Sequence record: OL780484.1
Reading direction: 5' to 3' (one strand)
DNA: 64,000 nucleotides
Origin: Escherichia phage vB_EcoM-E33
The position numbers and the translations under genes were made by a program. The notes below the pieces were generated by a model. That model worked only from the letters and a program-made list of their open reading frames with translations. It was not told where the DNA came from and ran no database searches. Shown here piece after piece: positions 3,170 to 55,271 of the stretch. How positions within the stretch are numbered: position 1 is the first letter of the stretch; each line of letters begins with the position of its first letter.

Positions 3170-3177
3170 AATACCTC

Positions 3178-6100: not shown

Positions 6101-7227
6101 GAAGCAATCTTATCTCCTACGGCAGCCTTAATATTTACTGTCTGAGCTTTACGGAGATAGTTCAGAGCAATCTTAACGACATCACCCTGGGCCACACCGG
6201 TAGGTAATGTGATATTAATTGTCTGGGGTGTCGTGTTATTAGGACCAAAAACAATAACACTTTCGTTAGCCAAGAGTTCAACATCGTCACGAATTACACG
6301 TAAACGAGTTTGTCGGTCGCCGTCCCAAACATACCATAATTTTTCGGTAGAGTTATAAACAAAGAATCCATCACCTGAAGTACGGAATTCCATGCTATGC
6401 TGGCCAGGCTTACCTAATGAAGATGACGCATCAAATGTTTCAACGATTAAGTGGAATTTACTTCCTAAACCATCGATATCAACGGTTTTAATAATATCAC
6501 CTTGGTTCGCATACTTAGGAAGAGTAAACTTAATTACTGCACCTGAAGTATAACGACGTAAAACGTTATCACCCGCTTGTGATTGGAACTGGGCGGTGTT
6601 CGGTTCTACACGAATACCACGTTCTTCATTAGCTGCTTCCCAGAAATGCCATAAACGGTTGGCAAAGATAATCATATTATAGGAAAAAGGCTTCGTAATT
6701 AAGGTCTCAGTGAACTGGTTACCGAAACGGACAATTTTCTGATTACCACCACCTGGAGCAGAACTAGACTGGAGCTTAATTTCATTATAACCTACACGGC
6801 CACCAATATCCTTGATTACGATGGTATCACCATCAGTAGGGTTAGGAGGCAGGGTAAACGTAGTAAAGCTAGCAGCAGAATCCACAGCAATATATTCACC
6901 GGAAGCCAGCTGGCGTGTAGGAGATGCTACGGTAATCCATTTAGGGTCAGTACGGGTAGCAGTCCAATAACCTGGTACAAAGGCTCCTGCCGGAGCATCG
7001 ATATCACGTTGAGCAACCCAGATACGTTGGTCATGGATTACGGCAAACCCTTTCTTATATCCGCGCGTCTCGTCGTACGCCTGGATGGTGTTCTCATCTA
7101 TAAAGAATTCAACGTTGACGCCGTCGTCTAATACATTGTAATCGGCTTTGGCAACATTGATAACTTTCTCGCCTGCAGCATCGAGTCCGGATGTAGCACG
7201 GAAGGCAGGTTTTAAAATATCGGCCAT
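3178..7227 (-). CDS. 34: Long tail fibre proximal subunit gp34
   Basis: 1349 aa; C-terminal GNVRIIPDPVTKSVKFEWIE and internal repeats (TATETRRG..ATQ) match recalled T4 gp34 (1289 aa). Confidence 0.92.
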   Translation of the reverse strand: MADILKPAFRATSGLDAAGEKVINVAKADYNVLDDGVNVEFFIDENTIQAYDETRGYKKGFAVIHDQRIWVAQRDIDAPAGAFVPGYWTATRTDPKWITVASPTRQLASGEYIAVDSAASFTTFTLPPNPTDGDTIVIKDIGGRVGYNEIKLQSSSAPGGGNQKIVRFGNQFTETLITKPFSYNMIIFANRLWHFWEAANEERGIRVEPNTAQFQSQAGDNVLRRYTSGAVIKFTLPKYANQGDIIKTVDIDGLGSKFHLIVETFDASSSLGKPGQHSMEFRTSGDGFFVYNSTEKLWYVWDGDRQTRLRVIRDDVELLANESVIVFGPNNTTPQTINITLPTGVAQGDVVKIALNYLRKAQTVNIKAAVGDKIASSVQLLQFPKRSEYPPETEWVLNDVLTFNGNISYTPVIELSYIEDTTTGGKYWVVAQNVPTIERVDSKDDLTRARLGVIALASQTQANVDHENNPEKELAITPQTLANRVATESRRGIARIATTAQVNQDTTFAFQDDLIISPKKLNERTATETRRGVAEIATQVETNTGTDDTTIITPKKLQARQGSESLSGIVTYTSTVGTTPATARDTVGTNVYNKNVGNLVISPKALDQYKATQVQQGTVYLSNQSEVNAGQTASGFANSAVSPETLHARVALDTRTGLIEIATQQETDTGTDYTRAVTPKTLNDRKATEGLTGIARIATQVEFDAGTLDNVISTPLKVKTRFNDTARTSVSAASGLIESGTLWNHYTLDIREANETQRGTARLATQTEVNVGTDDKTIITPLKLHYKKSTESSEGIIRVATNTETTAGTSKVLAVSPSGLKYVVQTETTWEATALRRGFVKLTEGALTYSGNKVTGSGVKFNSGTGLYENDDTVLNAANYPKTGYAVSSYEMNKTLQNFLPINATAVNSEKLDGLDSLQFIRRDVDQTVNGSLTLTKQLNLAAPLVSSSTANITGNTILGSLEVTGNSTFKNDVSVSSGKSIKFVGPQSGAGTWNSQGDTLAPIFAEINSTPDAKFHPIVKQRLGQGTFSLGTVNDGTRDFKIHYLPSPGSLESFYWTFNTTGDFAVNSGSISISKNANITGITTSNGVSTTTLNASALSSLQNVTTSGTIVSTGQVSANNGLVAQKYVRSVGVKPTLASQAPTAETVGFWSVDIDDSATFNLFPGYWTMKTKRQVNIDTVQTKPAGVSDEIWNASGWLTETGAFSSPAIRYRNEDGSFGDEVLGTSGQKLRGTWFDYSVRDKEVKYPGTLTQFGNTLDSCYQDWVCYPTGLNGGTIRYTRTWQKNKNAWTTFSMVYTADNPPSAEEVGALPADNATMGNITILDWLRIGNVRIIPDPVTKSVKFEWIE

Positions 7228-7259
7228 TTTATTTCCTTTTCGTTTTCAGGGTATAGAAC

Positions 7260-7267
7260 TATTTATA
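7260..7267 (-). promoter_or_regulatory. Late promoter for gene 34
   Basis: Minus-strand TATAAATA 33 nt upstream of the gene 34 ATG. Confidence 0.75.
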
Positions 7268-7274
7268 GCAAAGT

Positions 7275-7303
7275 GTTTACTTCTTCTAGGGTCGTGATAT
7301 AAT
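7275..7303 (+). promoter_or_regulatory. Early (sigma70-type) promoter for rnh
   Basis: GTTTAC, 17 bp spacer, TATAAT. Confidence 0.75.
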
Positions 7304-7334
7304 GAACCTCTACACTAATTGGACAGAGGTTCAT

Positions 7335-8282
7335 ATGAACGATTTAGATTTTTTACTTCCTGAAGAAGACCAACAAAAAGATGGATTTTTACTCCTAGAT
7401 TTCAGCCAAATCATTATGGCTGCAGCTTTCCAAGAGTTTGGTGAGAATGCTGGATTTCCTAAAGTAACTACAGCAATGCTTCGACACCTCGTGTTGAATT
7501 CAATTAAGAAAAATATTAAAGACTTTAAAAAACAGGGGTACAACCAACTGGTTATTTGTGTTGATAACTCTAAATCAGGTTATTGGCGTCGTCGCTATTC
7601 ACCTTATTATAAGAAAAACCGTGCTAAGGCACGTGACGAATCACCATTTGATTGGGAAGGTTTATTCACAGCAATGCATATTATTGTTGATGAACTGGAA
7701 CAAAACATGCCTTATATTGTTATGAATATCGATACAATCGAAGCTGATGACCATATTGCTGTTTTAACCCGAATCCTCACGGCTTTAGGCCATCCAGTTA
7801 TGATTGGTTCTTCGGATGGCGACTTTACTCAACTCCATAAATTCCCTGGGGTAAAACAATGGTCTCCAATGCAGAAAAAATTCGTCAAAACAAAATCTGG
7901 CGATTCATTATTAGATTGTGTAACTAAGGTTGTTAAAGGCGACCGCAAGGATAACGTCGCGAGTATTAAAGTTCGTGGTGATTACTGGTTGACGATGGTT
8001 GAAGGCGAACGTACTCCTAGCACTCGTGCCAAGGAACTTGAAGCAATTGCTCTGAATTATTACGACCATGATATAATTAAAACACTTCTTACTGAAGAAC
8101 AATATGAACGTTTCTGTGAAAACCAAATCTTAATTGATATGGACTTTATTCCAGATGATATTGTTGCTTTAATTACTGAAAGATATAATACGTATAACAA
8201 ACCTTCGAAATCTAAAGTTTATCCTTATTTCGTTAAATCTGGTTTGTCTAAACTAACTGCTACAGTAGCTGATTTTTATTAA
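7335..8282 (+). CDS. rnh: RNase H (5'-3' exonuclease, FEN-like)
   Basis: Matches recalled T4 rnh (DFSQI..., SSDGDFTQLHK, GERTPS). ORF-track start 7302 lies inside the -10 of an early promoter; ATG 7335 has a GAGG RBS. Confidence 0.88.
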   Translation: MNDLDFLLPEEDQQKDGFLLLDFSQIIMAAAFQEFGENAGFPKVTTAMLRHLVLNSIKKNIKDFKKQGYNQLVICVDNSKSGYWRRRYSPYYKKNRAKARDESPFDWEGLFTAMHIIVDELEQNMPYIVMNIDTIEADDHIAVLTRILTALGHPVMIGSSDGDFTQLHKFPGVKQWSPMQKKFVKTKSGDSLLDCVTKVVKGDRKDNVASIKVRGDYWLTMVEGERTPSTRAKELEAIALNYYDHDIIKTLLTEEQYERFCENQILIDMDFIPDDIVALITERYNTYNKPSKSKVYPYFVKSGLSKLTATVADFY

Positions 8283-27871: not shown

Positions 27872-28021
27872 ATGTTTGTAGTTCATACAATTTCAGACTA
27901 TGGTCCTACCACTACAATGGATTATGGTCATGTAAACCAGTTTATTCGTCATGTGAATCATGATTACTCATTTGATGTAAATCCGGCTAAAGACCATCCT
28001 GTTTGGCGCGAATGCGTCTAA
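27872..28021 (+). CDS. Hypothetical small protein
   Basis: ATG 27872 directly after the HAD stop, RBS GAGG; ORF-track start 27839 is an overlapping extension. Confidence 0.35.
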   Translation: MFVVHTISDYGPTTTMDYGHVNQFIRHVNHDYSFDVNPAKDHPVWRECV

Positions 28022-28109
28022 CAGGGATTCATTTATGTCCACTTTATGTCCAAGTTCAAATCTGATGGGCGAATGAGATTTGTGTTCTCTTATCATAAGC
28101 GATTAGACT

Positions 28110-28135
28110 TGCTTTTGGCTGATGTGGCTTATAAT
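28110..28135 (+). promoter_or_regulatory. Putative middle promoter for DNA ligase
   Basis: TGCTT, 15 bp, TATAAT. Confidence 0.4.
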
Positions 28136-28160
28136 AGAATCCATGACTAATGAGGTGATT

Positions 28161-29687
28161 ATGATTTTAGATATTTTAAACGAAATTGCTGCTATTGATT
28201 CTACTAAAGCTAAAGAAGCCATTATTGCTCGTGAAAAGGACAATGAGCTTCTGAAACGTGTTTATCGTATGGCTTATACCCGTCGTCTGAACTACGGTAT
28301 TAAAAAGTGGCCAGAACCTGGATTTACATCTCAATCCTTTGGTATGATTACTCTTGAAGACCTTCTTGATTTCGCTGAATTCACATTAGCCACACGTAAG
28401 ATTACGGGTAATGCGGCTATTGAAGAACTGGCTCAAATCATTGCTGATGCCAAGGCCCCGGATGCCGAGGTATTACGTCGTGTAATGATGCGCGACCTTG
28501 AATGTGGTGCATCGATTTCTATTGCTAACAAGGTTTGGAAAGGTTTAATCCCTGAACAACCGCAGATGTTGGCGAGTTCTTATGATGAAGCTTTGATTAA
28601 GAAAAATATTAAATGGCCAGCGTTTGCTCAATTAAAAGCTGATGGTGCTCGTTGTTTTGCCGAAGTTCGTAACGATGGTGTGACATTCCTTACTCGTGGT
28701 GGTAACGAATATCAAGGGCTTAATCTTTTGGCGGCTGAATTAATGGCCATGACCGAAGAAGCTCGACAACGCCATCCTAATGGCGTTATGATTGATGGCG
28801 AATTAGTTTACCATACTCCTAAGGTAGAACCTAAAGCATCTAATGATTTGTTTAGTATGTTTGACGAGGAACTTCCTGAATTAAGTAAGGCTAAGGAATT
28901 CCAAACTGCCGCCGATCGTTCTACGTCAAATGGATTGGCTAATAAGGCTCTTCAAGGAACTATTTCGGCTACTGAAGCCGCTGGTATGGTATTACAGGCA
29001 TGGGATTATGTCCCACTGGATGTCGTGTATTCTGAAGGCAAAATTAAAGGCGATAAGTATGATGTACGCTTTACAGCCTTAGAACTTATGGTGGCTCATA
29101 ATGTCGTATTGCATGGTACAACGCGGGTTGAAGCTATCGAAAACCAGTGGGTTAATAATCTTGAAGAAGCTAAAGTCGTTTATAAGAAATATGTCGACCA
29201 GGGCCTGGAAGGTATTATCCTTAAGAACATGGACTCCTACTGGGAAAACCGCCGTTCTAAGAATCTTATCAAGTTCAAAGAAGTAATCGATATTGCTTTA
29301 GAAGTGGTGGGTTATTATGAACACTCGAAGGACCCTAACAAGCTAGGTGGTGTCGAGTTGGTATCACGTTGTCGTCGAATTACAAGCGACTGTGGTTCAG
29401 GCTTTAAAGATACCACCCATAAGAAAGATAAATCAGGTAAAAAAGTATTGATTCCATTGGAAGACCGTCCTGATTTAGACCGTGAACTTCTTATGAAACA
29501 AGCTCGTGAAGGTAAATTGATTGGCCGTATTGCCGACTGTGAATGTAATGGTTGGGTTCATTCTAAAGGACGTACCGATACTGTAGGTATTTTCCTTCCA
29601 ATTATTAAAGGTTGGCGTTTCGATAAAACAGAAGCTGATACATTTGAAGATGTATTCGGGTCGTGGGACCAAACAGGACTTAATTAA
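28161..29687 (+). CDS. 30: ATP-dependent DNA ligase (gene 30)
   Basis: Start at ATG 28161 (MILDILNEIAAID..., RBS GAGG); KADGAR adenylation motif; matches recalled T4 DNA ligase. Confidence 0.93.
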   Translation: MILDILNEIAAIDSTKAKEAIIAREKDNELLKRVYRMAYTRRLNYGIKKWPEPGFTSQSFGMITLEDLLDFAEFTLATRKITGNAAIEELAQIIADAKAPDAEVLRRVMMRDLECGASISIANKVWKGLIPEQPQMLASSYDEALIKKNIKWPAFAQLKADGARCFAEVRNDGVTFLTRGGNEYQGLNLLAAELMAMTEEARQRHPNGVMIDGELVYHTPKVEPKASNDLFSMFDEELPELSKAKEFQTAADRSTSNGLANKALQGTISATEAAGMVLQAWDYVPLDVVYSEGKIKGDKYDVRFTALELMVAHNVVLHGTTRVEAIENQWVNNLEEAKVVYKKYVDQGLEGIILKNMDSYWENRRSKNLIKFKEVIDIALEVVGYYEHSKDPNKLGGVELVSRCRRITSDCGSGFKDTTHKKDKSGKKVLIPLEDRPDLDRELLMKQAREGKLIGRIADCECNGWVHSKGRTDTVGIFLPIIKGWRFDKTEADTFEDVFGSWDQTGLN

Positions 29688-29857
29688 TGAAAGTTTATTT
29701 AGAAACAATTGTTATATCAAATACAAATATTACGGCAGTCTCTCAAATCATCCTTGATTTTGAGGACGAAATAGCTTTTGCTGATTTTAAAGATACCTTC
29801 GATGGCTATGAAAAAGGCCCTACATTCGAAGTATATCGTACACTGTTACCACTTTAA
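29687..29857 (+). CDS. Possible 56-aa protein
   Basis: ATG overlaps ligase stop (TAATG); ends just before a hairpin; below ORF-track cutoff. Confidence 0.35.
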   Translation: MKVYLETIVISNTNITAVSQIILDFEDEIAFADFKDTFDGYEKGPTFEVYRTLLPL

Positions 29858-29874
29858 GGCCTTCGGGCCTTTTC
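29857..29874 (+). terminator. Terminator-like hairpin upstream of alt
   Basis: AGGCCttcgGGCCT followed by TTTTCT. Confidence 0.6.
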
Positions 29875-29877
29875 TGG

Positions 29878-29885
29878 CATAAATA
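29878..29885 (+). promoter_or_regulatory. Late promoter-like motif upstream of the alt genes
   Basis: CATAAATA 23 nt upstream of the alt paralog 1 ATG. Confidence 0.45.
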
Positions 29886-29907
29886 AGGTTATTAAAGAGG
29901 AATTATT

Positions 29908-31803
29908 ATGTCCGAACAATTGAATGAGGTATTTGATGGTGATATAAATTTATCTGCTGTCAATTTAAACCCTAAACTTAAAGTCCCACAGATTTGGAAT
30001 ATAAAGGCTGAAGGTAACGAGAACCTTGTTGCCCGCATGGTTTCATATACTTCCGAAGGCGATGTAATTCGTCAGGTTAAGCCTGGTGACAAGTATGTTC
30101 ATGTCGTTTTAATGAGCCTATCGGCTAAAGGTTCTCCTGCCGAACTCAAAGGTGGATTAGGTACCAATCCTATTTCCGCTATTCGTTCTATATTTGATAT
30201 CGTCTATGAACAGGTCAAGGCCCTTCGTATGGACGCTGTTATGTTCCGTTTTCCTACCAAGAAAATGAAAGGGCAGGAAAAAGCTATACAGAGGGTATTG
30301 GCTAAATTAATAGCCTCTAGAGCAGGCGGACAGTTTAAAGTTCTTGATGCCTTGTATCAATTCACCGGTAAGCATTCGTATGTTTTTATCTATCGTAAAA
30401 ATAAAAATATAGAATCTATAAATGGTATTCCTAATATTAATTTAGAATTGTATACTAAAGTCGAATCTGAAGTCGGTGACGTGTATGTTTCAAAGAAAAC
30501 AGGCGAAGATGTTACCAAACTAGAAGCTATAGCTAAGTCCATAGACGAAATAGAAAAATCACGTTCTGATAAAACTGTTATAACCAAAACAAAGGTTTCT
30601 AAACGTGCTGCTATCAATGCTTTATATCCTACAGCAGAGCCTACAGGATTGAGTAAATTTTCGGCAGAGCACAAAAAAGCTTATGCAGATTATTCTGCTA
30701 CTAGTTCCGTTCATTCTTCTGAAGATTCTAAAGAAAGCCAAATAGCTTTAGCCAGTAATAAAATATTAAAAGACACCTCTAAAGAAATGGCAGAATATTT
30801 GGATTATATTTTTAACGGTGTTAATCCATCATTTGAAGTAGACGAGCGCAAACTTAAACTAATTGCTGATATAAAGTTTGCTTTAGAGGCATCAGATTCT
30901 TTAGATAAATCTAATAGTGTCATAGAGGCTTTAAAATCAGGTAAATCTCATGTAGACATTCTTAGACTAGTCGCTGCGGCCCTTTTAGATGATTCAGTTA
31001 AAGGTACTTGGGCTAGAGAATCTAAAATCAAGGAAGTAATAAAATCCTTAGTAGCAGTTTATACAAAATCTATCCAACCATTGTTTAAGATATCTGATAA
31101 TCCTAATTTATCCAAACCTCAAGAAGAGGCAGTCAAAAAGTATACTCGTGGCGGCTACAACCATATAAACAACTTTTTGCTAGGTAAAACAGATACCACC
31201 GATGAAATGATAAAAATGATGGGTGAGTTGGATTCTACATTTGAAAATGGTACAAAACTTCCTAAAGGAACCATAGTGTATCGTTCTCAGATAATGCCTA
31301 CCGAAATGGCTTTGAATTCTATAAAACATAAGGTGATGTATCTTCCTATTTTTGCATCAACTTCATTGGCTCCTAATATTTTCGGTGAAATGGGTCATGC
31401 TCAATCCAACTTAGACCCTGAAGCTCTTTCTAGCGATATAGATAGTAATCTTGAAGACACCATTAAAAGTGCGACCGGAAGTGCTAGAGATACCATTAAG
31501 CTAGGGTTAATTATTAAAGGTGCTGATAAAATTAAGGTTATTGTGCCCGGTGACTTGGCTAATTGGTCTACAGAAACCGAAGTAATTCTTCCTCGTGGGG
31601 TTATGCTTAAGATTAATAAAGTATACGGTGCTTCCAAGGGACCTATGGGTTCAATTGGTAAATATGTTTTAGTGGAATGTGAAGTTGTAGCTACCGAGCA
31701 AATCACAGAGGAAAATTCATATAGCACCGGATTCTCGTTTGGAAATTATGATAGAATTATGTATGAAGATTCTATGGAAAAATTAGCAAATTTATTTAAA
31801 TAG
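29908..31803 (+). CDS. alt: Alt-like ADP-ribosyltransferase, paralog 1
   Basis: 631 aa; N-terminal region resembles recalled T4 Alt; C-terminal R/S-T-S/E-x-E motifs (VYRSQ, FASTSL, TETEVILPRG). Confidence 0.85.
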   Translation: MSEQLNEVFDGDINLSAVNLNPKLKVPQIWNIKAEGNENLVARMVSYTSEGDVIRQVKPGDKYVHVVLMSLSAKGSPAELKGGLGTNPISAIRSIFDIVYEQVKALRMDAVMFRFPTKKMKGQEKAIQRVLAKLIASRAGGQFKVLDALYQFTGKHSYVFIYRKNKNIESINGIPNINLELYTKVESEVGDVYVSKKTGEDVTKLEAIAKSIDEIEKSRSDKTVITKTKVSKRAAINALYPTAEPTGLSKFSAEHKKAYADYSATSSVHSSEDSKESQIALASNKILKDTSKEMAEYLDYIFNGVNPSFEVDERKLKLIADIKFALEASDSLDKSNSVIEALKSGKSHVDILRLVAAALLDDSVKGTWARESKIKEVIKSLVAVYTKSIQPLFKISDNPNLSKPQEEAVKKYTRGGYNHINNFLLGKTDTTDEMIKMMGELDSTFENGTKLPKGTIVYRSQIMPTEMALNSIKHKVMYLPIFASTSLAPNIFGEMGHAQSNLDPEALSSDIDSNLEDTIKSATGSARDTIKLGLIIKGADKIKVIVPGDLANWSTETEVILPRGVMLKINKVYGASKGPMGSIGKYVLVECEVVATEQITEENSYSTGFSFGNYDRIMYEDSMEKLANLFK

Positions 31804-31811
31804 GATAGATT

Positions 31812-33893
31812 ATGACCCAATTAAATGAAGTGTTCGAGTCCGAAGGTACACTGCCTGTTGTGAACTTGAACCCAAAACTTAAAGTACCTCAGATTTGGAA
31901 GATTGGAGACGCGGAGTCTCAGTTAGTAGCACGTATGGTATCCTATGCTTCTGAAGGCGATGCTATTAAACAGGTTAAGATGGGTGATAAATATGCCCAC
32001 GTTATCCTTATGAGCCTTTCAGCTAAAGGTACTCCAGCAGAACTTAAAGGTGGCTTAGGCCCTACTCCTATTGATGCTATTAATACCATTTTCGACGTAG
32101 TATTCGAACAGGTTAAAAAGCTTCGTATGGATGCCGTGATGTTCCGTTTCCCTACTAAGAAAATGAAAGGTCAAGGCCCTATCGTTCAACGGATTATCCA
32201 ACGTTTGGTAGCACAGAAAACAGGTGGACGTTTTAAAGTAGTTCCGGCTATGTACCAATTTACCGGTAAACATACTTACATCCTGGTAGTTCGTAAACAA
32301 GCTGATATAGAAGATATCAAAGGTATGCCTGGAATTAATGCTGAATTGTATACTAAGGTAGATTCTGATGTCGGTGAAGTTTATATTTCTAAAAAAGAAG
32401 GCGTGCAGGTTACTAAAGAAACTGCTATCGCCGGTAGTATTGCTAAGGTTGAAGAACGTCGCACTGATAAAATGGTTATAACCAAGACTAAGATTTCTCG
32501 ACGTGCTATTGCAGCAAGTCAATCGTTAGAATCTTATCGTAATGAAAGTGAGCTGTTTAAGAAATATGAAGCTACTGCAGTAGATTTTAATAAACCGGCA
32601 ACAGTTCCATTAATCCCTGAGGCTCAGGAAATGGTTACTAATAACAATTCTCCTGCGGCTAAAAATAAGGTTGCTAATATAGTGGCTGAAGGCACTGCTG
32701 AAGAATTGCATTACGATTATAAAATGTTCCCACTTCACGGTATTGGCGAAATCCAAGAGAAAATTAAAGAGAAAATTCTTACAGCAATAAAAAACGAACC
32801 TTTGACATCTGTTAAAGCTCTAGAAAAATATGCCTCTGCTATTAATACCATTTTCGAAGAATATAAAGGCGAGTGGCTGGCTATCCATAACAGAACTCGT
32901 AAAGGCCAACCTGATGACCTTTGGAACGAATTGACAGAGGCCAAGTGGAAAGCAGCCAAGACTAAGTTCATTAAAAAACGCGTGTATAGTTTTGCTGGTG
33001 TGGGTGGTGGTATTATGGTTGATATTACTATTGCTCGTGAAGGTTCTAAATATACTCCATCACAAAAGCGTGGTATCAGAGAATATTGTGGTTCAGGATA
33101 TACAGACATAAATAATCTTCTTTTAGGACGTTATAATCCTCAGAACTATGAGGTTATGAGCGAAAAAGATATCGAATCCGCTGTAAATAATTTAGATTCA
33201 GCTTTTGAAAATGGTGACCGTATACCGGAAGGCATTACAGTTTATCGTGCCCAGAGTATGACTGCTCCTATATACGAAGCACTAGTTAAAAATAAAGTGT
33301 TTTATTTTAGAAATTTTGTATCTACTTCTTTAACTCCTATAATTTTCGGACGTTTTGGTGTTACGCACGCTGGTATTGGTCTTTTAGAACCGGAAGTTCG
33401 CAACGAATTGACAGTTGATAAAAATGAAGAAGGAATAACTATTAATCCTAATGAAATAAGAGCATATAAAGAAAATCCTGATTATGTTAAAGTTCAAATA
33501 GGATGGGCTATTGATGGGGCCCATAAAGTTAATGTCGTATATCCAGGAAATCTCGGAATAGCAACTGAAGCCGAAGTTATTCTACCGCGTGGATTAATGG
33601 TCAAAGTTAATAAAATAACAGATGCTTCTAATAATGATGGAACAACATCTAGTAATACAAAACTCATTCAAGCTGAAGTTATGACAACAGATGAGCTTCA
33701 AGAATCTGTGGTATATGATGGTGATGTACTAATGGAAACCGGCGAGTTGGTCGTATATCAAGATGACTTCGATACTTCCGAAAGCCCCTTATCTTTTGAT
33801 TCATTTGTTAAATCTACACGGTTTGATGTACTGCCTCTTTTGGCTTCATGCATAGACCTCTATGACATCCCAGAAAAATTCATCCAAGGGTAA
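31812..33893 (+). CDS. Alt-like ADP-ribosyltransferase, paralog 2
   Basis: 693 aa; shares N-terminal ~230 aa with paralog 1; VYRAQ, FVSTSL, TEAEVILPRG. Confidence 0.85.
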   Translation: MTQLNEVFESEGTLPVVNLNPKLKVPQIWKIGDAESQLVARMVSYASEGDAIKQVKMGDKYAHVILMSLSAKGTPAELKGGLGPTPIDAINTIFDVVFEQVKKLRMDAVMFRFPTKKMKGQGPIVQRIIQRLVAQKTGGRFKVVPAMYQFTGKHTYILVVRKQADIEDIKGMPGINAELYTKVDSDVGEVYISKKEGVQVTKETAIAGSIAKVEERRTDKMVITKTKISRRAIAASQSLESYRNESELFKKYEATAVDFNKPATVPLIPEAQEMVTNNNSPAAKNKVANIVAEGTAEELHYDYKMFPLHGIGEIQEKIKEKILTAIKNEPLTSVKALEKYASAINTIFEEYKGEWLAIHNRTRKGQPDDLWNELTEAKWKAAKTKFIKKRVYSFAGVGGGIMVDITIAREGSKYTPSQKRGIREYCGSGYTDINNLLLGRYNPQNYEVMSEKDIESAVNNLDSAFENGDRIPEGITVYRAQSMTAPIYEALVKNKVFYFRNFVSTSLTPIIFGRFGVTHAGIGLLEPEVRNELTVDKNEEGITINPNEIRAYKENPDYVKVQIGWAIDGAHKVNVVYPGNLGIATEAEVILPRGLMVKVNKITDASNNDGTTSSNTKLIQAEVMTTDELQESVVYDGDVLMETGELVVYQDDFDTSESPLSFDSFVKSTRFDVLPLLASCIDLYDIPEKFIQG

Positions 33894-33896
33894 ATA

Positions 33897-36020
33897 ATGG
33901 AAAATTTAAACGAAGTTTTTGATAGTGATTCCGCTAAAAACTATCCAGTAACAAATCTTAAACCGGGTTCCGGTATTCCACAGATTTTCTCTATCCAAGC
34001 GCCAGGTAACGATAACCTGGTTGCTCGTATGGTATCTTATGCGTCTGAAGGCGATGCTATTAAAATGGTTAAGCCAGGCGATAAGTACGTCCATGTCATC
34101 CTAATGAGTTTATCTGCTAAAGGCGCCCCGGCAGAACTCAAGGGTGGTTTGGGTACCGATCCACTCGGTACACTGAACACCATTTTCGATACCATATATG
34201 AACAAATAAACAAACTTAAAATGGACGCGGTTTTGTTCCGTTTCCCTACTAAGAAAATGAAAGGTAAAGGTCCTACCGTTCAGCGCGTATTAGCTCGCTT
34301 GGCTATGGCTCGTACCGGTGGTAAGTTTAAAGTTGTTGACGACATGTTCCAATTCAGCGGAAAACATACCTACGTTCTTTTAGTACGTCGTGGTGCTAAT
34401 ATTGAAGATATCAAGGGTATGCCTGAAATTAATGCCGATCTTTATACTAAAGTTGAGTCTAAAGTTGGCGAAGTGTATGTTTCTAAGAAAACCGGCCAGG
34501 CTGTAAGTAAGGTCGAAGCCGTAGCGGCATCTATTGCACAAGTTGAAGAGAAACGTACTGATAAGGCTGTCATTACTCGTACTAAGATTTCGCGTCGTAT
34601 GGCAGCGGCGGCGCAGTATTCTACTGCTGAGCCTGAAACTTTGTCCCCTAAAGAATTGCAGGTTTATAACGAGTTTGAAGCTTCTGTACCGGTTCACACG
34701 GCTGAAGGCCCTGAGAATGAAGGTATTGAACAGATTAGTCAGAACTTTAAAAAAGGTGCTATTACCAAAATGCGCCAGGCTTCTCAGTTTAAATCTAAGA
34801 GCGAGGACCTTGCCAACTTTAGATACACTATTGCTCTCACACACGCTTTAATGACTGATAGTAAATTTAAACTAAATTATGCTAATAGAGATAAACAAGG
34901 GTTTGAAATTTACTCTAATAATATGGCATTTTTTAATACAGAAGTCGATAGACTTTTAAGTGGCCTTTCGCAAATCAATACAACCAATAGTCTGGATATT
35001 ATTAAGAAAATTGTTAATAACCTGAGTACCCGTTTTAAGGGTTCCCCTTCAGAGAAAGCATCTAGAATTGCTTTCGCTATGGAAGCCGTTTATAAACTGG
35101 TTAACGATTCTATTAGTGATGCATATGCTTATTCAGGCGAGCTCATTAAACCTAAGGACCTAACCAAAGACGAAAGCAATGCTATTATTGAATATTGCGC
35201 GGCTGAATATGCTCCTATGAACTTATTCCTTTTAGGTAAACCTGAATCCGAAAACAATACAACGGCTATTAAATTGATTAAGGATTTAGACTCGGCATTT
35301 ACTAAGGGTATTAAACTTCCTAAGGGTACTATTTTGTATCGTGGTCAGGATTTGCCATACAAAATTCTGCGCCATAATATCGATAACAAAACATTTTACT
35401 TTAAGAACTTTGTGTCAGCCTCACTAAAACCTAACATCTTTGGTGAATTTGGTAAAAATTATATGGCCCTCGACAACCAAGCCGTTTTTGTTGGCGGTGA
35501 AGGTTCTTTGTCCTCAGCTGATGAGTTGTTTAAATTGGCTAGTGGTAGTTCATCTGATGTGGGTGAAGTCGATGACGAAGAGGTAGAATGGGAAGAAGAC
35601 GAGTTCGGTAATCCAATTGCACCTGAAGGTCCTGCGGATAGAATTGCTGAAATTGGTATGGTTATTCGAGGTGCTGAAGCAGTTAAAGTTATCGCTCCTG
35701 GTGACCTTACAGAATATGCCGAAGAAGCAGAAATTATCCTTCCGCGTGGATTATTGTTGAAGGTTGATAAAGTAGCGGCTTTTGCCATGAATGATAGAGT
35801 ATCTCACAAATACCTTATGGAAGCTACCGTAACGCCTCCTTCAGAGCTCAGCGAATCTGTTTACGATGGCGACCATTTGATGGAAACTGGTGAAGTTCGC
35901 CTGATGGATGGATTCAGTCAATTCTTGGTTAATGAATCCGTTTCTGAAAGCAACGAAGCTATGGAAATCCTTGCCGCGTCTTTGGATATCTCTTCTTTAT
36001 CAAATAAATTCAAAATGTAG
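33897..36020 (+). CDS. Alt-like ADP-ribosyltransferase, paralog 3
   Basis: 707 aa; shares N-terminal region; LYRGQ, FVSASL, EEAEIILPRG. Confidence 0.85.
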   Translation: MENLNEVFDSDSAKNYPVTNLKPGSGIPQIFSIQAPGNDNLVARMVSYASEGDAIKMVKPGDKYVHVILMSLSAKGAPAELKGGLGTDPLGTLNTIFDTIYEQINKLKMDAVLFRFPTKKMKGKGPTVQRVLARLAMARTGGKFKVVDDMFQFSGKHTYVLLVRRGANIEDIKGMPEINADLYTKVESKVGEVYVSKKTGQAVSKVEAVAASIAQVEEKRTDKAVITRTKISRRMAAAAQYSTAEPETLSPKELQVYNEFEASVPVHTAEGPENEGIEQISQNFKKGAITKMRQASQFKSKSEDLANFRYTIALTHALMTDSKFKLNYANRDKQGFEIYSNNMAFFNTEVDRLLSGLSQINTTNSLDIIKKIVNNLSTRFKGSPSEKASRIAFAMEAVYKLVNDSISDAYAYSGELIKPKDLTKDESNAIIEYCAAEYAPMNLFLLGKPESENNTTAIKLIKDLDSAFTKGIKLPKGTILYRGQDLPYKILRHNIDNKTFYFKNFVSASLKPNIFGEFGKNYMALDNQAVFVGGEGSLSSADELFKLASGSSSDVGEVDDEEVEWEEDEFGNPIAPEGPADRIAEIGMVIRGAEAVKVIAPGDLTEYAEEAEIILPRGLLLKVDKVAAFAMNDRVSHKYLMEATVTPPSELSESVYDGDHLMETGEVRLMDGFSQFLVNESVSESNEAMEILAASLDISSLSNKFKM

Positions 36021-36049
36021 TTTACAACACCACAAGGATGTGGTACTAT
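36020..36049 (+). promoter_or_regulatory. Early promoter
   Basis: GTTTAC, 18 bp, TACTAT; -35 overlaps the stop of alt paralog 3. Confidence 0.7.
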
Positions 36050-36077
36050 TACCTTACACAAACATGAGGAGAACATT

Positions 36078-36368
36078 ATGAAATCTGCATTCCGTTTTAA
36101 TGGTCAAGAACTGGTAGTTGAAAACGTTATCCCTGCTTCTGAAGAGTTTGACAGTGCAGTGGGTAATGAATTACGTCGAGTTTTCGGTGAAGACAAACAG
36201 TTTGATATCCGACCTGTTGAGAATTTTTCTTATCCAGAACAAACCGAAAACATTTTTAACGGTGTAGTGACAGGACAACTCGAATCCGAAGCTCCTATTT
36301 CGGTTACGGTGTTTGTTAAAAAGCAACCACTAATGACCACAGCAGGTTTCATTTCGTTCCGTAAATAA
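36078..36368 (+). CDS. Hypothetical protein
   Basis: 96 aa ORF with own early promoter, RBS GAGGAG, followed by a bidirectional terminator. Confidence 0.55.
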   Translation: MKSAFRFNGQELVVENVIPASEEFDSAVGNELRRVFGEDKQFDIRPVENFSYPEQTENIFNGVVTGQLESEAPISVTVFVKKQPLMTTAGFISFRK

Positions 36369-36375
36369 ACCCCTA

Positions 36376-36402
36376 AAGGAGAGCATATGCTCTCCTTTTT
36401 TG
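36376..36402. terminator. Bidirectional terminator between convergent plus-strand early block and gene 54
   Basis: AAAGGAGAGCATATGCTCTCCTTTTTT palindromic hairpin with flanking T/A runs. Confidence 0.85.
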
Positions 36403-37332
36403 TTATAACAACCTCGATATTCCACTATTAACCAATCCTGTTAATCCACTAGAAGCTCCTGAAAGTCGGCTTAATTTAGCTACTGAAGAACTCAGGGAAT
36501 TGCTCTCACTTATACCCGCCACGCCTTTAAGGACTTTATCTTCCAACCATTCATAAGCAGCTTGTTTGCCAACTGCACCAGTCTGTACACTTCTATAAGC
36601 AAATGTAACATCAAATGAAGCAATTTGGTTATCACCGTCGTAAGATAATTCCGGGGAAGATACGCTCATTGGAACGCAACCATTAAGCATTACTACCGTA
36701 TGTGGTAATCCATTACGGGAATGAAGGTTGACTTGAATGTCAGCTTCAACATCCTCCGGTAATGCTCTTAATTGTGTAATAGGGTCTTGAACACTATTGA
36801 CCCAATCATTAAAAGCACGGTAGTTAGCAGCTTCAGAATCCATACGGAAGCTTAATACTAATGGAGAATATTCTCTTCCGGTAATTTTGATGTTAGGTGA
36901 GTTGTGGTTCAAATCCATTTCATAGTTCAAAGTATTATCCGGGATTTTAACGGCGTGGACTAAAAGACCTGCCGTAGGATAGGCCATATTGAAAAAATCC
37001 ATCAGATATGTACCTACTTCAAACTCTCCTAGTAAGCTCTGCACAACCCTGGATGACATAGCTCCAATCAAATATTTACTTATGCCTGACTTACGAATCA
37101 ACTTCTGAGTGCCCGCTGTCACTAATGTCGTAACACCTTGGGTCAACTCTCCTTGTGTAATACCAAACAAATCGCTATTCAATGGGATATTGTTAAATAA
37201 AGCTCCACCGAACTGGTCGAGGAGCGTCTGAGATTTAGAAGAAGGAACTGTGGCAAATACCACACTAAACAGGTTATTCCTTTGTAGGTCAATATTAATT
37301 GCCTGATTCTGAAATTCTTGTAAAGTATACAT
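36403..37332 (-). CDS. 54: Baseplate tail-tube initiator gp54
   Basis: 309 aa, MYTLQEFQNQAINIDLQRNNLFSVVFAT... matches recalled T4 gp54. Confidence 0.92.
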   Translation of the reverse strand: MYTLQEFQNQAINIDLQRNNLFSVVFATVPSSKSQTLLDQFGGALFNNIPLNSDLFGITQGELTQGVTTLVTAGTQKLIRKSGISKYLIGAMSSRVVQSLLGEFEVGTYLMDFFNMAYPTAGLLVHAVKIPDNTLNYEMDLNHNSPNIKITGREYSPLVLSFRMDSEAANYRAFNDWVNSVQDPITQLRALPEDVEADIQVNLHSRNGLPHTVVMLNGCVPMSVSSPELSYDGDNQIASFDVTFAYRSVQTGAVGKQAAYEWLEDKVLKGVAGISESNSLSSSVAKLSRLSGASSGLTGLVNSGISRLL

Positions 37333-38420
37333 TAGAATCCTTCCGTATAAAGTGAGCCACGGTTCAGAGTAATAATTTCACGGAAAGTAACTTCTAAACT
37401 AAACGTAGATGGTAAGTTAGGAGCAATAGCCAATCCGTTAAAATGGCCGTCCGGAGTTTTATCAAAACGGATACTCTGGATTTGGCATGGGCCAAAAATA
37501 TCTTCACGACCATCATATGAACTGCTATCACCAAAGTTTCGGATATACCAAATGGTTGGGTTACTTACCACAATAACATTAGAAAGGAAGCTTGTAATAC
37601 TTTCCCCTAATAGCTTACCATCAAACTTGTCAATAGCTTCTTTTTTAAATGTAGAACGATACCAAGTATCAATCTTCTCTTTTAATTCACCTGCGAAAGC
37701 CGAATTACCCGTTTCGCCGTAAGAATAATAGTTGAAGATTTCGTATATTTTAATAATCTGGATAAGGTCTTGGGCATTTCGTGGAGTCATTTCCCAAGTG
37801 AATACCTTAGTACGGTTATCCGGACCGGCGTACATACTACGAGCTGTAGTGTATATCTGTTCGCCTGAATCAGCCATTACGCCGTTAGTCACAGATTCTA
37901 ATGCACCAAATACCGCGGTACTAGCAACGTTACTTAAAATACCTGTAGCAGTACCACCGCCTTTAGTAATTAAGGACTCACCAACATCATTAAATTTGTG
38001 TGATACGGAATCCACATCAGATTTAGAACGAGGTAAAAGGATATTAGCTAAGGCTTGGCTATCAAATTTAACGCCCTTAGTATTTCCACCAAATAAGTTT
38101 TTAACAGCACTATATGTTCCACTATTGCCTGTTAATTTGCTGGCTGCACTTGAGAACTTTTTAGTCATTTGACTCGAACGGTCGTTACGCAAATCCGGAG
38201 ATACACGAGAACTAAAATTATATGCGGTAAAAAGCAATCCATTTTTATAGAGGTCGTTTAATACCATATCGGTTGAGGTATCATTACCTGAAGCCCGCTC
38301 AGCTGGATACTGAGCGGTTACCGTGGTTTTTATTGGTGGTGTTTTAGATTGACCTGCGGAGGTCTTTGAACCTCCTTTAAACAAGGAGGCTACATCAAAG
38401 TCAAGTTCTTTTACTTTCAT
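37332..38420 (-). CDS. 48: Baseplate tail-tube cap gp48
   Basis: 362 aa; T4 synteny (29-48-54) and size. Confidence 0.85.
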   Translation of the reverse strand: MKVKELDFDVASLFKGGSKTSAGQSKTPPIKTTVTAQYPAERASGNDTSTDMVLNDLYKNGLLFTAYNFSSRVSPDLRNDRSSQMTKKFSSAASKLTGNSGTYSAVKNLFGGNTKGVKFDSQALANILLPRSKSDVDSVSHKFNDVGESLITKGGGTATGILSNVASTAVFGALESVTNGVMADSGEQIYTTARSMYAGPDNRTKVFTWEMTPRNAQDLIQIIKIYEIFNYYSYGETGNSAFAGELKEKIDTWYRSTFKKEAIDKFDGKLLGESITSFLSNVIVVSNPTIWYIRNFGDSSSYDGREDIFGPCQIQSIRFDKTPDGHFNGLAIAPNLPSTFSLEVTFREIITLNRGSLYTEGF

Positions 38421-49209: not shown

Positions 49210-49236
49210 GGGACCTTACGGTCCCTTTTATTTTTC
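49210..49236. terminator. Bidirectional terminator between rnlB and the gp24 paralog
   Basis: GGGACCttacGGTCCC followed by TTTTATTTTT. Confidence 0.8.
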
Positions 49237-50508
49237 TAAAGGCGGTAATTTTACGCCGAGATAAGAACTCAATTGACTTTGATTAGCCATTTTGTCCATA
49301 TCAGAACCATCAATAATGCGGGCTTCTTTATCGTCCTTAGCGACGGTATAAGGGTTTGCAGTCAATGCATAACGAGCAAGCAATGCTACTGTAGGTTGTA
49401 AGCTTTCCGGGTCAACAATAACCTTAAATTCACCAACTGAAGTATCACCTTCTTCGTCAACCACATTCAAACCTTCCGTATAAGGCGCATAATATAAAGA
49501 TGCGACCGTCTGTCCTTCACCCATCTGGGCATTTACACCAACAATAACATAATCACATGGACTATTCATATCAGCATAAAGTGGTAGGCCATTCTTTAAT
49601 ATACCATAAGCCAATTCGTCCTGGTCTTCCTTTTTCTCAACCCAACCAGAGGCGGCGAGAATAGCAGCACAACGAGAACTAGCTACTGCATAAGTCCCGG
49701 CAAAAGAAGTCTGTCGTTGGACGGCAGAGTTCATCTCACACATATAATAATATAATGTGCGAGCACGGTCCTGGGCATTATCGTAGCGAGGGTTGGTAAG
49801 GTCTAATACACCCTTTTCAGAAACACCCCGGACTTTAAAACGAGAGCTCACGGTAATTAATGACTGTAATACATCCTTATTAATTTCTTCTGCCATTTGA
49901 ATGCCTAGCAGATTTTCAACGAAATTAGGAGCATTAAACCCGTTAGATTCTAGGTCTTGGGCTAATTCGACTGTCAATGAAGTTTTCAGTTTACGTGATT
50001 TAACTTCAGATTGCCATTTGTCGATACGGAATCCGGTTTCAGCAATTTCAGGATGGCCTTGTTCAAATTTAGAAGTAATAGCAGCATCCGACACCATACG
50101 GATATGGCCGGCTGCCACTGCTTCAGAAATAACTTCGCTGAGGTTGGTTTCTGTGGTTCCGGCGAAAGGAGATGCTTCTAGAACTTTAAACACTACGCTT
50201 TCAAACTGGAACATATCACCGACCGCATAAGCTGTAGATGAATCAGTAAATTCTGGAATATTTTCACGTTCCGTCATACCAATCTGGCCCGCAAATGTTG
50301 CTCCACCAAGATAAGTCATTTTGTCGTCAGGATTCAGTACACGTACCCCATACAGAGCAGCAACCGGTTGATTTGTTTTTTGTTCAGCAACTAGGGCTTT
50401 AAAGATTCGTTTATTAGTTGCTTGGGTGTATGAAAGAAGAGCAGGACGGCCAACCGAGCTGGCAGCCGTCAATGTGGATTCTTTAATTAGGTCTACAATC
50501 TTAGACAT
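49228..50508 (-). CDS. Head vertex protein gp24 paralog (divergent second copy)
   Basis: 426 aa; same family as gp24/gp23 (LTVELAQDLESNGF, YYAPYTEGL, VAKDDKEARIIDGSDMDKMA); start overlaps stop of upstream gp24 by 1 nt. Confidence 0.85.
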   Translation of the reverse strand: MSKIVDLIKESTLTAASSVGRPALLSYTQATNKRIFKALVAEQKTNQPVAALYGVRVLNPDDKMTYLGGATFAGQIGMTERENIPEFTDSSTAYAVGDMFQFESVVFKVLEASPFAGTTETNLSEVISEAVAAGHIRMVSDAAITSKFEQGHPEIAETGFRIDKWQSEVKSRKLKTSLTVELAQDLESNGFNAPNFVENLLGIQMAEEINKDVLQSLITVSSRFKVRGVSEKGVLDLTNPRYDNAQDRARTLYYYMCEMNSAVQRQTSFAGTYAVASSRCAAILAASGWVEKKEDQDELAYGILKNGLPLYADMNSPCDYVIVGVNAQMGEGQTVASLYYAPYTEGLNVVDEEGDTSVGEFKVIVDPESLQPTVALLARYALTANPYTVAKDDKEARIIDGSDMDKMANQSQLSSYLGVKLPPLEK

Positions 50509-51791
50509 TAATCAGCCTCGTAAATAATTGCCGGAAGTTTAACGCCAACCAGATAAGACATATTGCTCTGTCCAGCCATTAAATCCATATTGGTTGCATC
50601 GATAACACGAGCTTCTTTATCGTCTTTAGCCACGGTGTACGGGTTAGCTGATAGTGCATAACGAACCATCAGAGAAATAGAAGGTTGTAATGAATCCGGG
50701 TCAACAATAACCTTATAAGCACCGACGTGTTCTTGGTCATCTAAATCTAAGCCTTCGGTATAGGGAGCGTAGAAAATAGAACCGACAACTTCATTACCGC
50801 CGTAATTCTCTTTAACACCAACGGTAACATAATCTAATGGACTGTTAACGTCACAAAACAGAGGCAGACCATTCAACAAATATCCGTATGCAGTTTCCGG
50901 AAGCCAATTATTATCTTCGGGTTTATGTTTTAACCAGCCAGAACCTGCAAGCATTGCAGCCACACGACTTGAAGCCACAACAAACGTGCCAGAATAAGAA
51001 GTAGTTTTCTGGATTTCAGAATTCATCTCACAAACGAGTTCATAAAGTTTACGTGCAGATTCAGGAGCACTGTCATAAGACAAATCGATGATGCCGTTAT
51101 CAGATACACCAGTAACTTTATAACGTTTGGATACGGTTATTAGAGATTGCAGAACGTCTTTATTAATTTCATCTGCCATTACTGTAGCCAAGAGGTCTTC
51201 TAAGAACGCCGGCGCGTCAAAGCCATTTGATTCCATATCCTGCGCTAATTCTACAGTCAAAGCCGTCTTCAATTTACGGGTCTTAACCGGAGCATTCCAT
51301 TTATTAACCTGGAATACAGCATCAGAGATTTCTACATCACTCGCTTCAAATTTAGTGGTATGGGCAGCATCAGGAACCAGACGACATGTTAATGACACTA
51401 AACCTTCTTGAAGAGCATCAGCCAATTCTGTGGCGCTAGTGGACGCGAGTGGGCTTGCTTTAAGAGCCTTATAAACCACATTCTGGTACTTGAAATATTC
51501 ACCCTGAGCAATCGCCTGGGCCTTATCTGTGAGTTCTGGGATAGTTTCACGGTCTTTAGAACCAACTTCACCACCATAAGAGGCACCTGTCTGGAAACTA
51601 AATTCATTATCAGGGGTAAGATATTTGACACCATACAGTGCAGCAATAGGCTGGCTAGTACGTTGTTCGGCGATAATATCACGGTAAATCAATTTGGTTG
51701 TAGCACGGGTCAAAGCAACAAGATTAGGGCGACCCAATGAGTTGCTGGAAGTAGTTGTTGACTCGCGCAGTAATTCGTTAATCTTTGCCAT
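50508..51791 (-). CDS. 24: Head vertex protein gp24
   Basis: 427 aa, MAKINELLRESTTTSSNSLGRPNLVALTRATTKLIY... near-identical to recalled T4 gp24. Confidence 0.92.
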   Translation of the reverse strand: MAKINELLRESTTTSSNSLGRPNLVALTRATTKLIYRDIIAEQRTSQPIAALYGVKYLTPDNEFSFQTGASYGGEVGSKDRETIPELTDKAQAIAQGEYFKYQNVVYKALKASPLASTSATELADALQEGLVSLTCRLVPDAAHTTKFEASDVEISDAVFQVNKWNAPVKTRKLKTALTVELAQDMESNGFDAPAFLEDLLATVMADEINKDVLQSLITVSKRYKVTGVSDNGIIDLSYDSAPESARKLYELVCEMNSEIQKTTSYSGTFVVASSRVAAMLAGSGWLKHKPEDNNWLPETAYGYLLNGLPLFCDVNSPLDYVTVGVKENYGGNEVVGSIFYAPYTEGLDLDDQEHVGAYKVIVDPDSLQPSISLMVRYALSANPYTVAKDDKEARVIDATNMDLMAGQSNMSYLVGVKLPAIIYEAD

Positions 51792-54635: not shown

Positions 54636-55271
54636 TTATAACGCTTTTTTCATGGCCTCTGCGAGAGCCATAAAGGCGTCATCGGCACTGGTATCGGTTT
54701 CTACCGTTTGTGATTCTGTAATTTGCTTCGGAGTTACATAAGCATCAGGAGCAGATGGTCCCCATACTGCATCAACACCGACGGTTAATTTATAACCTTC
54801 GTTTACACGCTTATATCCTTTATTGGTTTCAGTTAAAGAACCAAGACCGCGAGAACTAACACCAGGAACCCAGCCAGCTCGGATATTTGCAGCTAGTTTA
54901 TCACCCGGGCCATGGTCACCTTCGATGATACGTGCACGTCCATAAACATCATTACCTTTCCACCACATATCTTCAATAATGATAGCAGCTTGCATAGGGT
55001 CAACGTTAGCACGAGGTGGGTGGTTTAATTCTCCTAAAGCTTGTTTAGTAGCAACCTGTTCTGCCATATAATCGGCAACGGCTTTTTCCAAAATAGGTTT
55101 TGGGTAAAGGCGTTTATTACGGTTAACTACCTCTGCTTGCATGAAAATGCCTTCTATATAAAGGCCGGGAGCAAGCCCAGAATTTTTTCCATCATGAGAT
55201 TCCAACATAGGAACCCCATCGATAATTTCACCTGGTTGTCCCCAATGTTCGATGAGCAATTCAGGTTTCAT
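54636..55271 (-). CDS. 21: Prohead protease gp21
   Basis: 211 aa; near-identical to recalled T4 gp21 (LLIEHWGQPGEIIDGVPMLESHDGK...). Confidence 0.95.
   Translation of the reverse strand: MKPELLIEHWGQPGEIIDGVPMLESHDGKNSGLAPGLYIEGIFMQAEVVNRNKRLYPKPILEKAVADYMAEQVATKQALGELNHPPRANVDPMQAAIIIEDMWWKGNDVYGRARIIEGDHGPGDKLAANIRAGWVPGVSSRGLGSLTETNKGYKRVNEGYKLTVGVDAVWGPSAPDAYVTPKQITESQTVETDTSADDAFMALAEAMKKAL

Follow-up and report, generated by a model that had tools for sequence, protein, structure and literature searches.

A tandem array of three alt-like genes

Alt of bacteriophage T4 is a textbook example of a phage enzyme that is delivered into the host together with the DNA. In this work, we analyzed the alt locus of Escherichia phage vB_EcoM-E33 in a stretch of 64,000 nucleotides (nt) of sequence record OL780484.1, referred to hereafter as the window. 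Between the DNA ligase gene (gene 30) and gene 54, the window contains three intact open reading frames (ORFs) on the plus strand, here named A1, A2 and A3, which encode proteins of 631, 693 and 707 amino acids (aa) and are separated by gaps of 8 nt (A1-A2) and 3 nt (A2-A3). The three products matched the Pfam family ADPrib_exo_Tox (PF03496) with scores of 49.1, 124.4 and 63.3 bits, respectively (gathering cut-off 23.4), as well as PHROG 802, described as "Alt-like RNA polymerase ADP-ribosyltransferase". The E-values, from 6e-13 to 5e-36 for Pfam and from 1e-204 to 1e-262 for PHROG 802, are so low that the matches cannot be attributed to chance, and we assign A1, A2 and A3 to the T4 Alt family.

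A1, A2 and A3 were aligned with T4 Alt and 70 database homologues in order to delimit their domains, and motif counts were taken from a 73-sequence alignment. The three proteins share an N-terminal module (N-module, aa ~1-232) with 63-68% aa identity; at the DNA level the identity is 64-66% (MAFFT), with ungapped repeat blocks of 69-76% within it. The middle region that follows (aa ~233-400) is only 11-21% identical and essentially unalignable, the ADP-ribosyltransferase (ART) domain (aa ~401-600/650) is 34-38% identical, and A2 and A3 have a conserved C-terminal tail (VYDGD.LMETGE...), that of A1 being short and different. The predicted structure of A1 is compatible with this division: it comprises an N-propeptide (1-7), the N-module (~8-232), an all-helical middle (~233-400), an ART domain folded with high confidence (~401-601) and a C-propeptide (602-631). 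An earlier sequence-only reading of this locus had described three consecutive ORFs of these lengths, opening with the decapeptides MSEQLNEVFD, MTQLNEVFES and MENLNEVFDS and sharing a conserved region of ~230 aa, all of which agrees with the translations and the alignment. It had also proposed a divergent center of ~250 aa; the divergence itself stands, but the length does not, as the fully divergent part covers ~170-190 aa and the ART domain, although divergent, can be aligned.

The residues expected for an arginine-specific ART (R / S-x-S / E-x-E) are intact in each of the three proteins, and the motifs listed in the sequence-only reading were all found in the translations (VYRSQ, FASTSL and TETEVILPRG in A1; VYRAQ, FVSTSL and TEAEVILPRG in A2; LYRGQ, FVSASL and EEAEIILPRG in A3). 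In A1 they correspond to R459, S484/S486 and E556/E558, positions that are conserved in 72, 73/70 and 73/73 of the 73 sequences, respectively. A2 carries R, STS and EAE, and A3 carries R, S-A-S and EAE, the S-A-S variant of S-T-S being present in three of the 73 sequences. An acidic insertion (GEVDDEEVEWEEDEFGNPIAPEGPADR, within 34593-36017) lies between S-A-S and ExE of A3 and divides its Pfam match in two; it is kept in the altb genes of Dhakavirus, whose ART domains are 98-100% identical to that of A3.

Orthology, relatives and selection

We assign A2 as the orthologue of T4 Alt, with 49% identity overall, 61-62% in the ART domain, 36% in the middle and 51-53% in the tail. Its ART domain is 93% identical to that of RB5 Alt and falls into the ART cluster with the most members (45 of 73 representatives). 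A3 corresponds to altb, and we assign it as the orthologue of the intact second alt gene located downstream of alt in many Tequatroviruses, where it is mostly annotated as "hypothetical protein". The A3 effector region was covered by at least 80% in 519 phage records, the Tequatrovirus copies being ~50% identical. The copy of phage RB5 (RB5_192, "alt.-2"), which like A3 is found downstream of alt, is 47%, 59% and 65% identical to A3 in the middle, ART domain and tail, respectively, whereas its N-module is closer to that of RB5/T4 Alt (67%) than to that of A3 (46%). The view that T4 simply has a single alt, taken in the sequence-only reading, overlooks both this second gene of the Tequatroviruses and the relic alt.-1/alt.-2 of T4 itself, which according to the T4 record "reflect an old duplication of the first part of gene alt". 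This relic retains N-module sequence only and, because it occupies the same position as the A3-type gene, is most likely a remnant of one. The two-copy state is older than the split between Tequatrovirus and Dhakavirus.

A1 is a rarer type than A2 and A3, as its effector region was at least 99% identical in only seven phage records and less than 60% identical in all others. It is not an orphan, since the corresponding first place in Shigella phage SP18 is taken by a full-length homologue, 63% identical. A separate set of three tandem copies occurs in Pseudomonas phage PspYZU05. Among 60 records taken as a spread sample from the 1,201 phage records with an N-module, the number of N-module places per record was one in 29 records, two in 27, three in three and four in one.

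Over its full length, the 6.7-kb region shares 96.7-98.5% identity with the Escherichia phages PSD2002, WG01 and LQ5, with Shigella phage PSD9 and with Salmonella phage ABTNLS3; WG01 is classified in the genus Dhakavirus (Straboviridae, Tevenvirinae). These five phages have the identical A1-A2-A3 arrangement and all of them except PSD2002, where the products are hypothetical, annotate ADP-ribosyltransferases. In the WG01 RefSeq record all three genes are labelled "Alt-like RNA polymerase ADP-ribosyltransferase", and the LQ5 gene table also includes the three genes (PMC12895675). Other members of Dhakavirus have a different content: JS98, JS10 and IME08 carry two annotated genes, alta and altb, and the Dhakavirus alta/altb genes are 93-100% identical by region to A2 and A3. 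JS10 and IME08 lack A1, as do MX01 and QL01, in which a gene of a fourth type (681 aa) separates A2 from A3. Paralogous alt duplications had furthermore been described in RB49, 44RR and T4 by Nolan et al. 2006 (PMC1524935). The novelty implied by the sequence-only reading therefore does not hold, since the triple arrangement is already in the databases and alt paralogy is already in the literature, so that neither the existence of the array nor its annotation is new. What this analysis contributes is the proposed orthology map, the conservation of both predicted protease sites in every copy and the evidence for a recombining cassette array, presented below. Literature searches retrieved no functional work on extra Alt copies, those of Dhakavirus included.

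The ratios of nonsynonymous to synonymous substitutions (dN/dS), calculated by the Nei-Gojobori method, were 0.078, 0.040 and 0.038 for A1, A2 and A3 relative to WG01, and 0.050 and 0.068 for A2 and A3 relative to IME08, and low values were also obtained for the ART domains. A1, A2 and A3 are all under purifying selection and none of them resembles a decaying paralogue. These data bear on the possibility that A2 is the only working injected enzyme, A1 and/or A3 being catalytically inactive or unpackaged remnants that approach the state of the T4 pseudogene, or else non-enzymatic internal head proteins. The T4 alt.-1/alt.-2 relic does show that a second copy can decay, truncated proteins consisting of the N-module only do exist (P0114 and others), A3 has the S-A-S variant and the acidic insertion, and A1 is devoid of most of the conserved C-terminal tail. 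Nonetheless, we consider this scenario very improbable: the ORFs are full length, the catalytic residues and both cleavage-site glutamates are intact, dN/dS remains at 0.04-0.08 with the ART domains included, and the ART domain of A1 is predicted to fold with confidence.

Predicted packaging and processing signals

Mass spectrometry of T4 has shown that the head protease gp21 trims Alt by six residues at ITE-6 and by 63 residues at LTE-619 (Ali et al. 2017, PMC5694885; reviewed in PMC9026906). The glutamate aligned with E6 of T4 Alt is present in 73/73 sequences and preceded by L in 70, the corresponding sites being LNE-7 in A1, LNE-6 in A2 and LNE-6 in A3; a T4-like N-terminal propeptide, in line with the resemblance to a capsid-targeting sequence noted in the sequence-only reading, can thus be recognized in all three proteins by its L-x-E protease motif. 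At the position aligned with E619, 71 of the 73 have a glutamate, in 70 cases after L or I, with ITE-601, LQE-631 and LSE-653 as the sites of A1, A2 and A3. The A1 model loses confidence and turns disordered exactly at 602-621. Cleavage at both sites would yield mature proteins of 65.3, 69.5 and 71.1 kDa for A1, A2 and A3, respectively.

The window also encodes a gp21-type head maturation protease (Table 1) and the gp22 scaffold, and in T4-like phages of Klebsiella, which have a single Alt homologue, virion mass spectrometry showed this protein to be abundant (PMC13119998). The cleavage motifs, the A1 model and the presence of the gp21 and gp22 genes suggest that all three proteins are packaged and processed by gp21, which would be the most economical reading of the data.

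Locus layout and expression signals

The gene order of the locus is that of T4 (30 - alt.1 - alt - alt.-3 - 54), with the array in the place of alt (Table 1). The small ORF upstream of A1 matches the position of alt.1 in T4, IME08 and JS10, and the ORF downstream of A3 that of alt.-3 in T4, RB5, JS10, SP18 and Kpn BM7.

Table 1. Features of the alt locus and other features of the window referred to in the text
Feature	Position	Strand	Remarks
ATP-dependent DNA ligase (gene 30)	28122-29687		Upstream of the array; Pfam DNA_ligase_A_M
alt.1 homologue	29687-29857	+	56 aa; small conserved ORF in the ligase/alt interval; PHROG 1976, 8e-25
Hairpin GGCCTTCGGGCC	29859-29876	+	Followed by a short T-run; directly 5' of the promoter motif
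Late-promoter-like motif CATAAATA	29878-29885	+	22 nt before the A1 ATG
A1, predicted Alt-like ADP-ribosyltransferase, rare effector type	29908-31803	+	631 aa
A2, predicted Alt, putative T4 Alt orthologue ("alta" of JS98/JS10/IME08)	31812-33893	+	693 aa; PF03496, 4.6e-36; PHROG 802, 1e-262
Direct repeat TGCTATTAATACCATTTTCGA inside A2	32075-32095 and 32837-32857	+	Perfect, 21 nt
A3, predicted Alt paralogue ("altb")	33897-36020	+	707 aa; PF03496, 2.6e-17, in two stretches; PHROG 802, 3e-250
alt.-3 homologue	36078-36368	+	96 aa; DUF5498; last gene of the co-oriented block; PF17602, 7e-34; PHROG 1739
Bidirectional terminator-like hairpin	36375-36398		10-bp stem (5 GC pairs), then a T-run; between the alt.-3 homologue and gene 54
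Gene 54	36403-37332	-	Convergent to the alt block
gp24-like gene	49228-50508	-	PHROG 138
gp24-like gene	50508-51791	-	PHROG 138
gp21-type head maturation protease	54636-55271	-	PHROG 207, 3e-76

The motif CATAAATA upstream of A1 differs at one position from the T4 late promoter TATAAATA. Behind a common hairpin, T4 and SP18 have the canonical TATAAATA at the aligned position, and all six Dhakaviruses compared have CATAAATA; the late-promoter-like motif noted before the first copy in the sequence-only reading is therefore located at a position homologous to that of the T4 alt late promoter. The hairpin GGCCTTCGGGCC itself is kept in the six Dhakavirus loci compared and at the same position in T4. 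It failed the terminator scan, and the stem-loop is possibly a weak terminator or an RNA-stability element.

No canonical late promoter TATAAATA was found in 28000-37500. Independent late promoters for A2 and A3 were also considered and none was credible: no one-mismatch variant is usefully placed before either gene, the motif TTTAAATA at 31795 being just 9 nt before the A2 ATG. For these reasons, it seems likely that A1, A2, A3 and the alt.-3 homologue are expressed as one late transcript ending at the hairpin that precedes gene 54. In the window as a whole, canonical TATAAATA motifs are enriched (16 observed versus 6.2 expected), with a minus-strand cluster at 51.8-60.8 kb that precedes head and tail genes.

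A recombining cassette array

The N-module corresponds to the Pfam family PF26846 ("Tevenvirinae_ADPRT"), with precomputed matches for P0001 (97% identical to A1), for a 694-aa protein of QL01 (A2-type) and for altb of JS10 (A3-type). The family is narrow, as it comprised 72 clusters (50% identity) among 1.84 billion representatives, in all of which the N-module occupied the N-terminus and in almost all of which an ART or a degenerate ART-like domain came next. The idea that it might be a general delivery handle for many effector types is therefore unsupported, its linkage being almost exclusively to ART-like domains. The sole unexplained exception is P0174, a metagenomic representative of 541 aa with an Alt N-module at 1-162, in whose remaining ~380 residues neither a recognizable ART motif nor a Pfam or PHROG domain was found; it may be the only case of an Alt N-module joined to a different effector. 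Proteins reduced to the N-module also occur, such as P0114 (371 aa) and several representatives of 118-230 aa. We also considered that the N-module might itself be an enzyme or a ligand-binding domain with a GNAT-like acyl-CoA N-acyltransferase fold, which would make each Alt protein bifunctional, and find this improbable. Neither the N-module nor the middle domains had a match in the Pfam set without PF26846 (E up to 10) or in a PDB profile search.

N-module and ART-domain trees are discordant, as N-modules group largely by phage lineage and ART domains by type across genera. N-module identity is 67-99% among T4 Alt, RB5 Alt and RB5 Alt2, 80-82% among the three copies of PspYZU05 and 63-91% among the Dhakavirus types. 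Conversely, 17 pairs among 73 representatives combine N-modules at least 85% identical with ART domains less than 45% identical, and the fourth type of MX01/QL01 has an N-module 91% identical to that of A3 with only ~20% identity in the middle and 32% in the ART domain. A strict clustering of N-modules by genome, as would be expected from co-adaptation with the capsid, is weakened by SP18, whose two N-modules share only 43% identity; because of this pair, N-module/capsid co-adaptation is a tendency at most.

Another clear example is the comparison of A2 with RB5 alt (RB5 locus 2217-4310), where nucleotide identity reaches 85-98% only over aa ~400-620 and is 40-72% upstream of the ART domain and 54-75% in the tail. 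This pattern reflects a recent and clean swap of the catalytic domain alone between genera. The swap also sets RB5 Alt apart from T4 Alt, their ART domains being 64% identical.

Local divergence was also observed relative to WG01, which is 97% identical overall. The synonymous substitution rate (dS) of A1 was 0.60 in the N-module, 0.07 in the middle and 0.00 in the ART domain, and that of A3 was 0.29 in the N-module versus 0.04; the hot stretches are located at 29908-30600 of the window (WG01 locus 3174-3870) and at 33897-34260 (WG01 locus 7163-7525). Recent gene conversion among the copies of the genome was rejected, given that DNA identity between the N-modules is 64-66% and long identical tracts are absent. 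Conversion was likewise rejected as the source of the differences from WG01, as the A1 and A3 N-module sites favor no in-genome paralogue (30 versus 37, 33 versus 28 and comparable counts). These differences look like patchy allelic exchange with unsampled phage donors. Altogether, the sequence comparisons argue for the alt locus being a variable, recombining cassette array.

Possible function of the array

Taken together, we regard it as probable that the locus is a late-expressed operon for three head-packaged, injected, arginine-specific mono-ADP-ribosyltransferases of the T4 Alt family, where packaging and catalysis are proposed by analogy with T4 Alt. According to this model, late transcription would start at CATAAATA, run through A1, A2, A3 and the alt.-3 homologue and stop at the hairpin before gene 54, as suggested by the sequence and by homology with T4. 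The precursors consist of an L-N-E-ended propeptide, the N-module of ~225 aa, a type-specific helical middle, the R-S-ExE ART domain, an L/I-x-E site and a C-tail, a composition derived from sequence and model. By homology with T4 Alt, they would enter the prohead core, where the gp21 encoded in the window would trim both ends, and the mature enzymes of ~65, 70 and 71 kDa would be ejected with the DNA. Once in the host, they would use NAD+ to ADP-ribosylate arginines of host proteins. As to its origin, A2 and A3 would be an ancestral pair common with Tequatrovirus, A1 would have been gained upstream in the WG01 lineage, and effector domains and N-modules would recombine independently between phages.

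Several observations weigh against this interpretation. First, the putative promoter motif CATAAATA carries C, not T, at its first position. In addition, the A3 sequence has S-A-S, seen in only 3/73 sequences, plus the long acidic insertion inside the predicted ART domain, and the structural model is that of A1 alone, A2 and A3 being based on alignment and Pfam. Besides, our literature searches found no virion proteomics for any multi-copy Alt phage, such data being restricted to single-copy relatives. Finally, the differences in target proposed for the three enzymes would follow from their divergence alone.

The known targets of T4 Alt include RNA polymerase alpha and MazF. As the middle domains of A1, A2 and A3 are unrelated and their ART domains only 34-38% identical, A1 and A3 would most likely act on different host or defence proteins. 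T4 Alt was recently shown to contribute to the evasion of type I Mokosh, a defect that was complemented by T4 Alt but not by Bas37 Alt (bioRxiv 10.1101/2025.11.20.689424). Given this lack of interchangeability between two Alt proteins, it is plausible by analogy that A1, A2 and A3 have diversified in their targets. The suggestion of the sequence-only reading that the three enzymes have potentially different targets gains in plausibility from this result, from the divergence of the middle and ART domains and from the purifying selection, and remains at that level. The triple array probably widens the range of host targets. Conversely, the copies might be equivalent and simply raise the amount of injected enzyme acting on shared targets such as RNA polymerase alpha. 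A1, A2 and A3 do have in common the family, the R-S-ExE motif typical of arginine-specific enzymes and the predicted packaging signals, and T4 Alt is described in reviews as non-essential and promiscuous (PMC5512222, PMC9026906). A mere effect of dosage is unlikely, however: recent dosage duplicates would be much closer to each other than 11-21% in the middle and 34-38% in the ART domain, the types are conserved across genera (A3 ~50% identical to the second alt of Tequatrovirus, A1 63% to SP18) with dN/dS below 0.1, and the Mokosh result shows that Alt variants are not interchangeable.

Beyond the model of three injected ARTs, it is tempting to regard the alt locus as a polymorphic-effector system comparable to polymorphic toxin loci, in which a delivery scaffold (the N-module and the protease-removed termini) would be retained while ART "warheads" and target-recognition middles would be exchangeable and swapped between genera, each type being directed against a different defence or takeover target, with a GNAT-like N-module of its own activity as an added layer. 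We offer this extension tentatively and consider it doubtful.

The likeness to T4 Alt (NP_049811) extends from the locus (gene 30/alt.1 to alt.-3/gene 54) and the position of hairpin and late promoter to the architecture (N-propeptide, N-module, helical middle, R-S-ExE ART and C-propeptide) and both gp21 motifs. However, T4 has one intact alt and a decayed duplicate in the place of three intact genes, the N-modules of A1, A2 and A3 are only 42-46% identical to that of T4 Alt, and the middles of A1 and A3 are unrelated to the T4 Alt middle (10-15% identity). The T4 enzymes ModA and ModB belong to the same ART clade (Alt/VIP2, R-S-E) and also modify host proteins, but they are proteins of ~200 aa consisting of an ART domain only, are encoded at another locus and, in contrast to Alt, are not among the proteins injected from the head (PMC5512222). 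More distant members of the R-S-E clade are the C3 exoenzymes, Vis and the enzymatic components of binary toxins (iota Ia, CDTa, Vip2 and CPILE-a), with only 15-20% identity; these are secreted or delivered by pores or secretion systems instead of being packed into a head, and they lack the PF26846 module and the gp21 propeptides. The same logic of a conserved packaging determinant combined with a variable injected cargo is found in the T4 internal proteins IPI-IPIII and in the MuF-fused effectors (PMC9026906, PMC9503650). The former are also alike in having propeptides, similar to a capsid-targeting sequence, that are cut off by gp21 (PMC9026906), but the capsid-targeting sequence of IPI-IPIII has ~10 residues, to which A1, A2 and A3 add a conserved folded module of ~225 aa. 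In turn, MuF carries many effector types, whereas the N-module of A1, A2 and A3 is, across its 72 clusters, almost exclusively linked to ART-like domains.

Alt having been linked to the evasion of type I Mokosh in 2025, phages with two or three divergent and maintained types constitute a ready panel for target mapping. The modular pattern also shows where chimeras could be cut, as the lineage of the phage is mostly reflected in the termini, the ART domain is exchangeable by itself and the cleavage sites are conserved.

Additional observations

No tRNA genes were detected by ARAGORN across the 64-kb window. Two tandem gp24-like genes (vertex/major-head-fold; 426 and 427 aa) were found on the minus strand (Table 1), whereas the T4 annotation has a single gene 24; they represent a second tandem duplication of a head component within the window. 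Lastly, the perfect 21-nt direct repeat TGCTATTAATACCATTTTCGA of A2 encodes the peptide AINTIF in both of its copies, one located in the N-module and the other in the middle domain. It is much longer than expected by chance for the 6.7-kb region and may be a recombination footprint or a microhomology.

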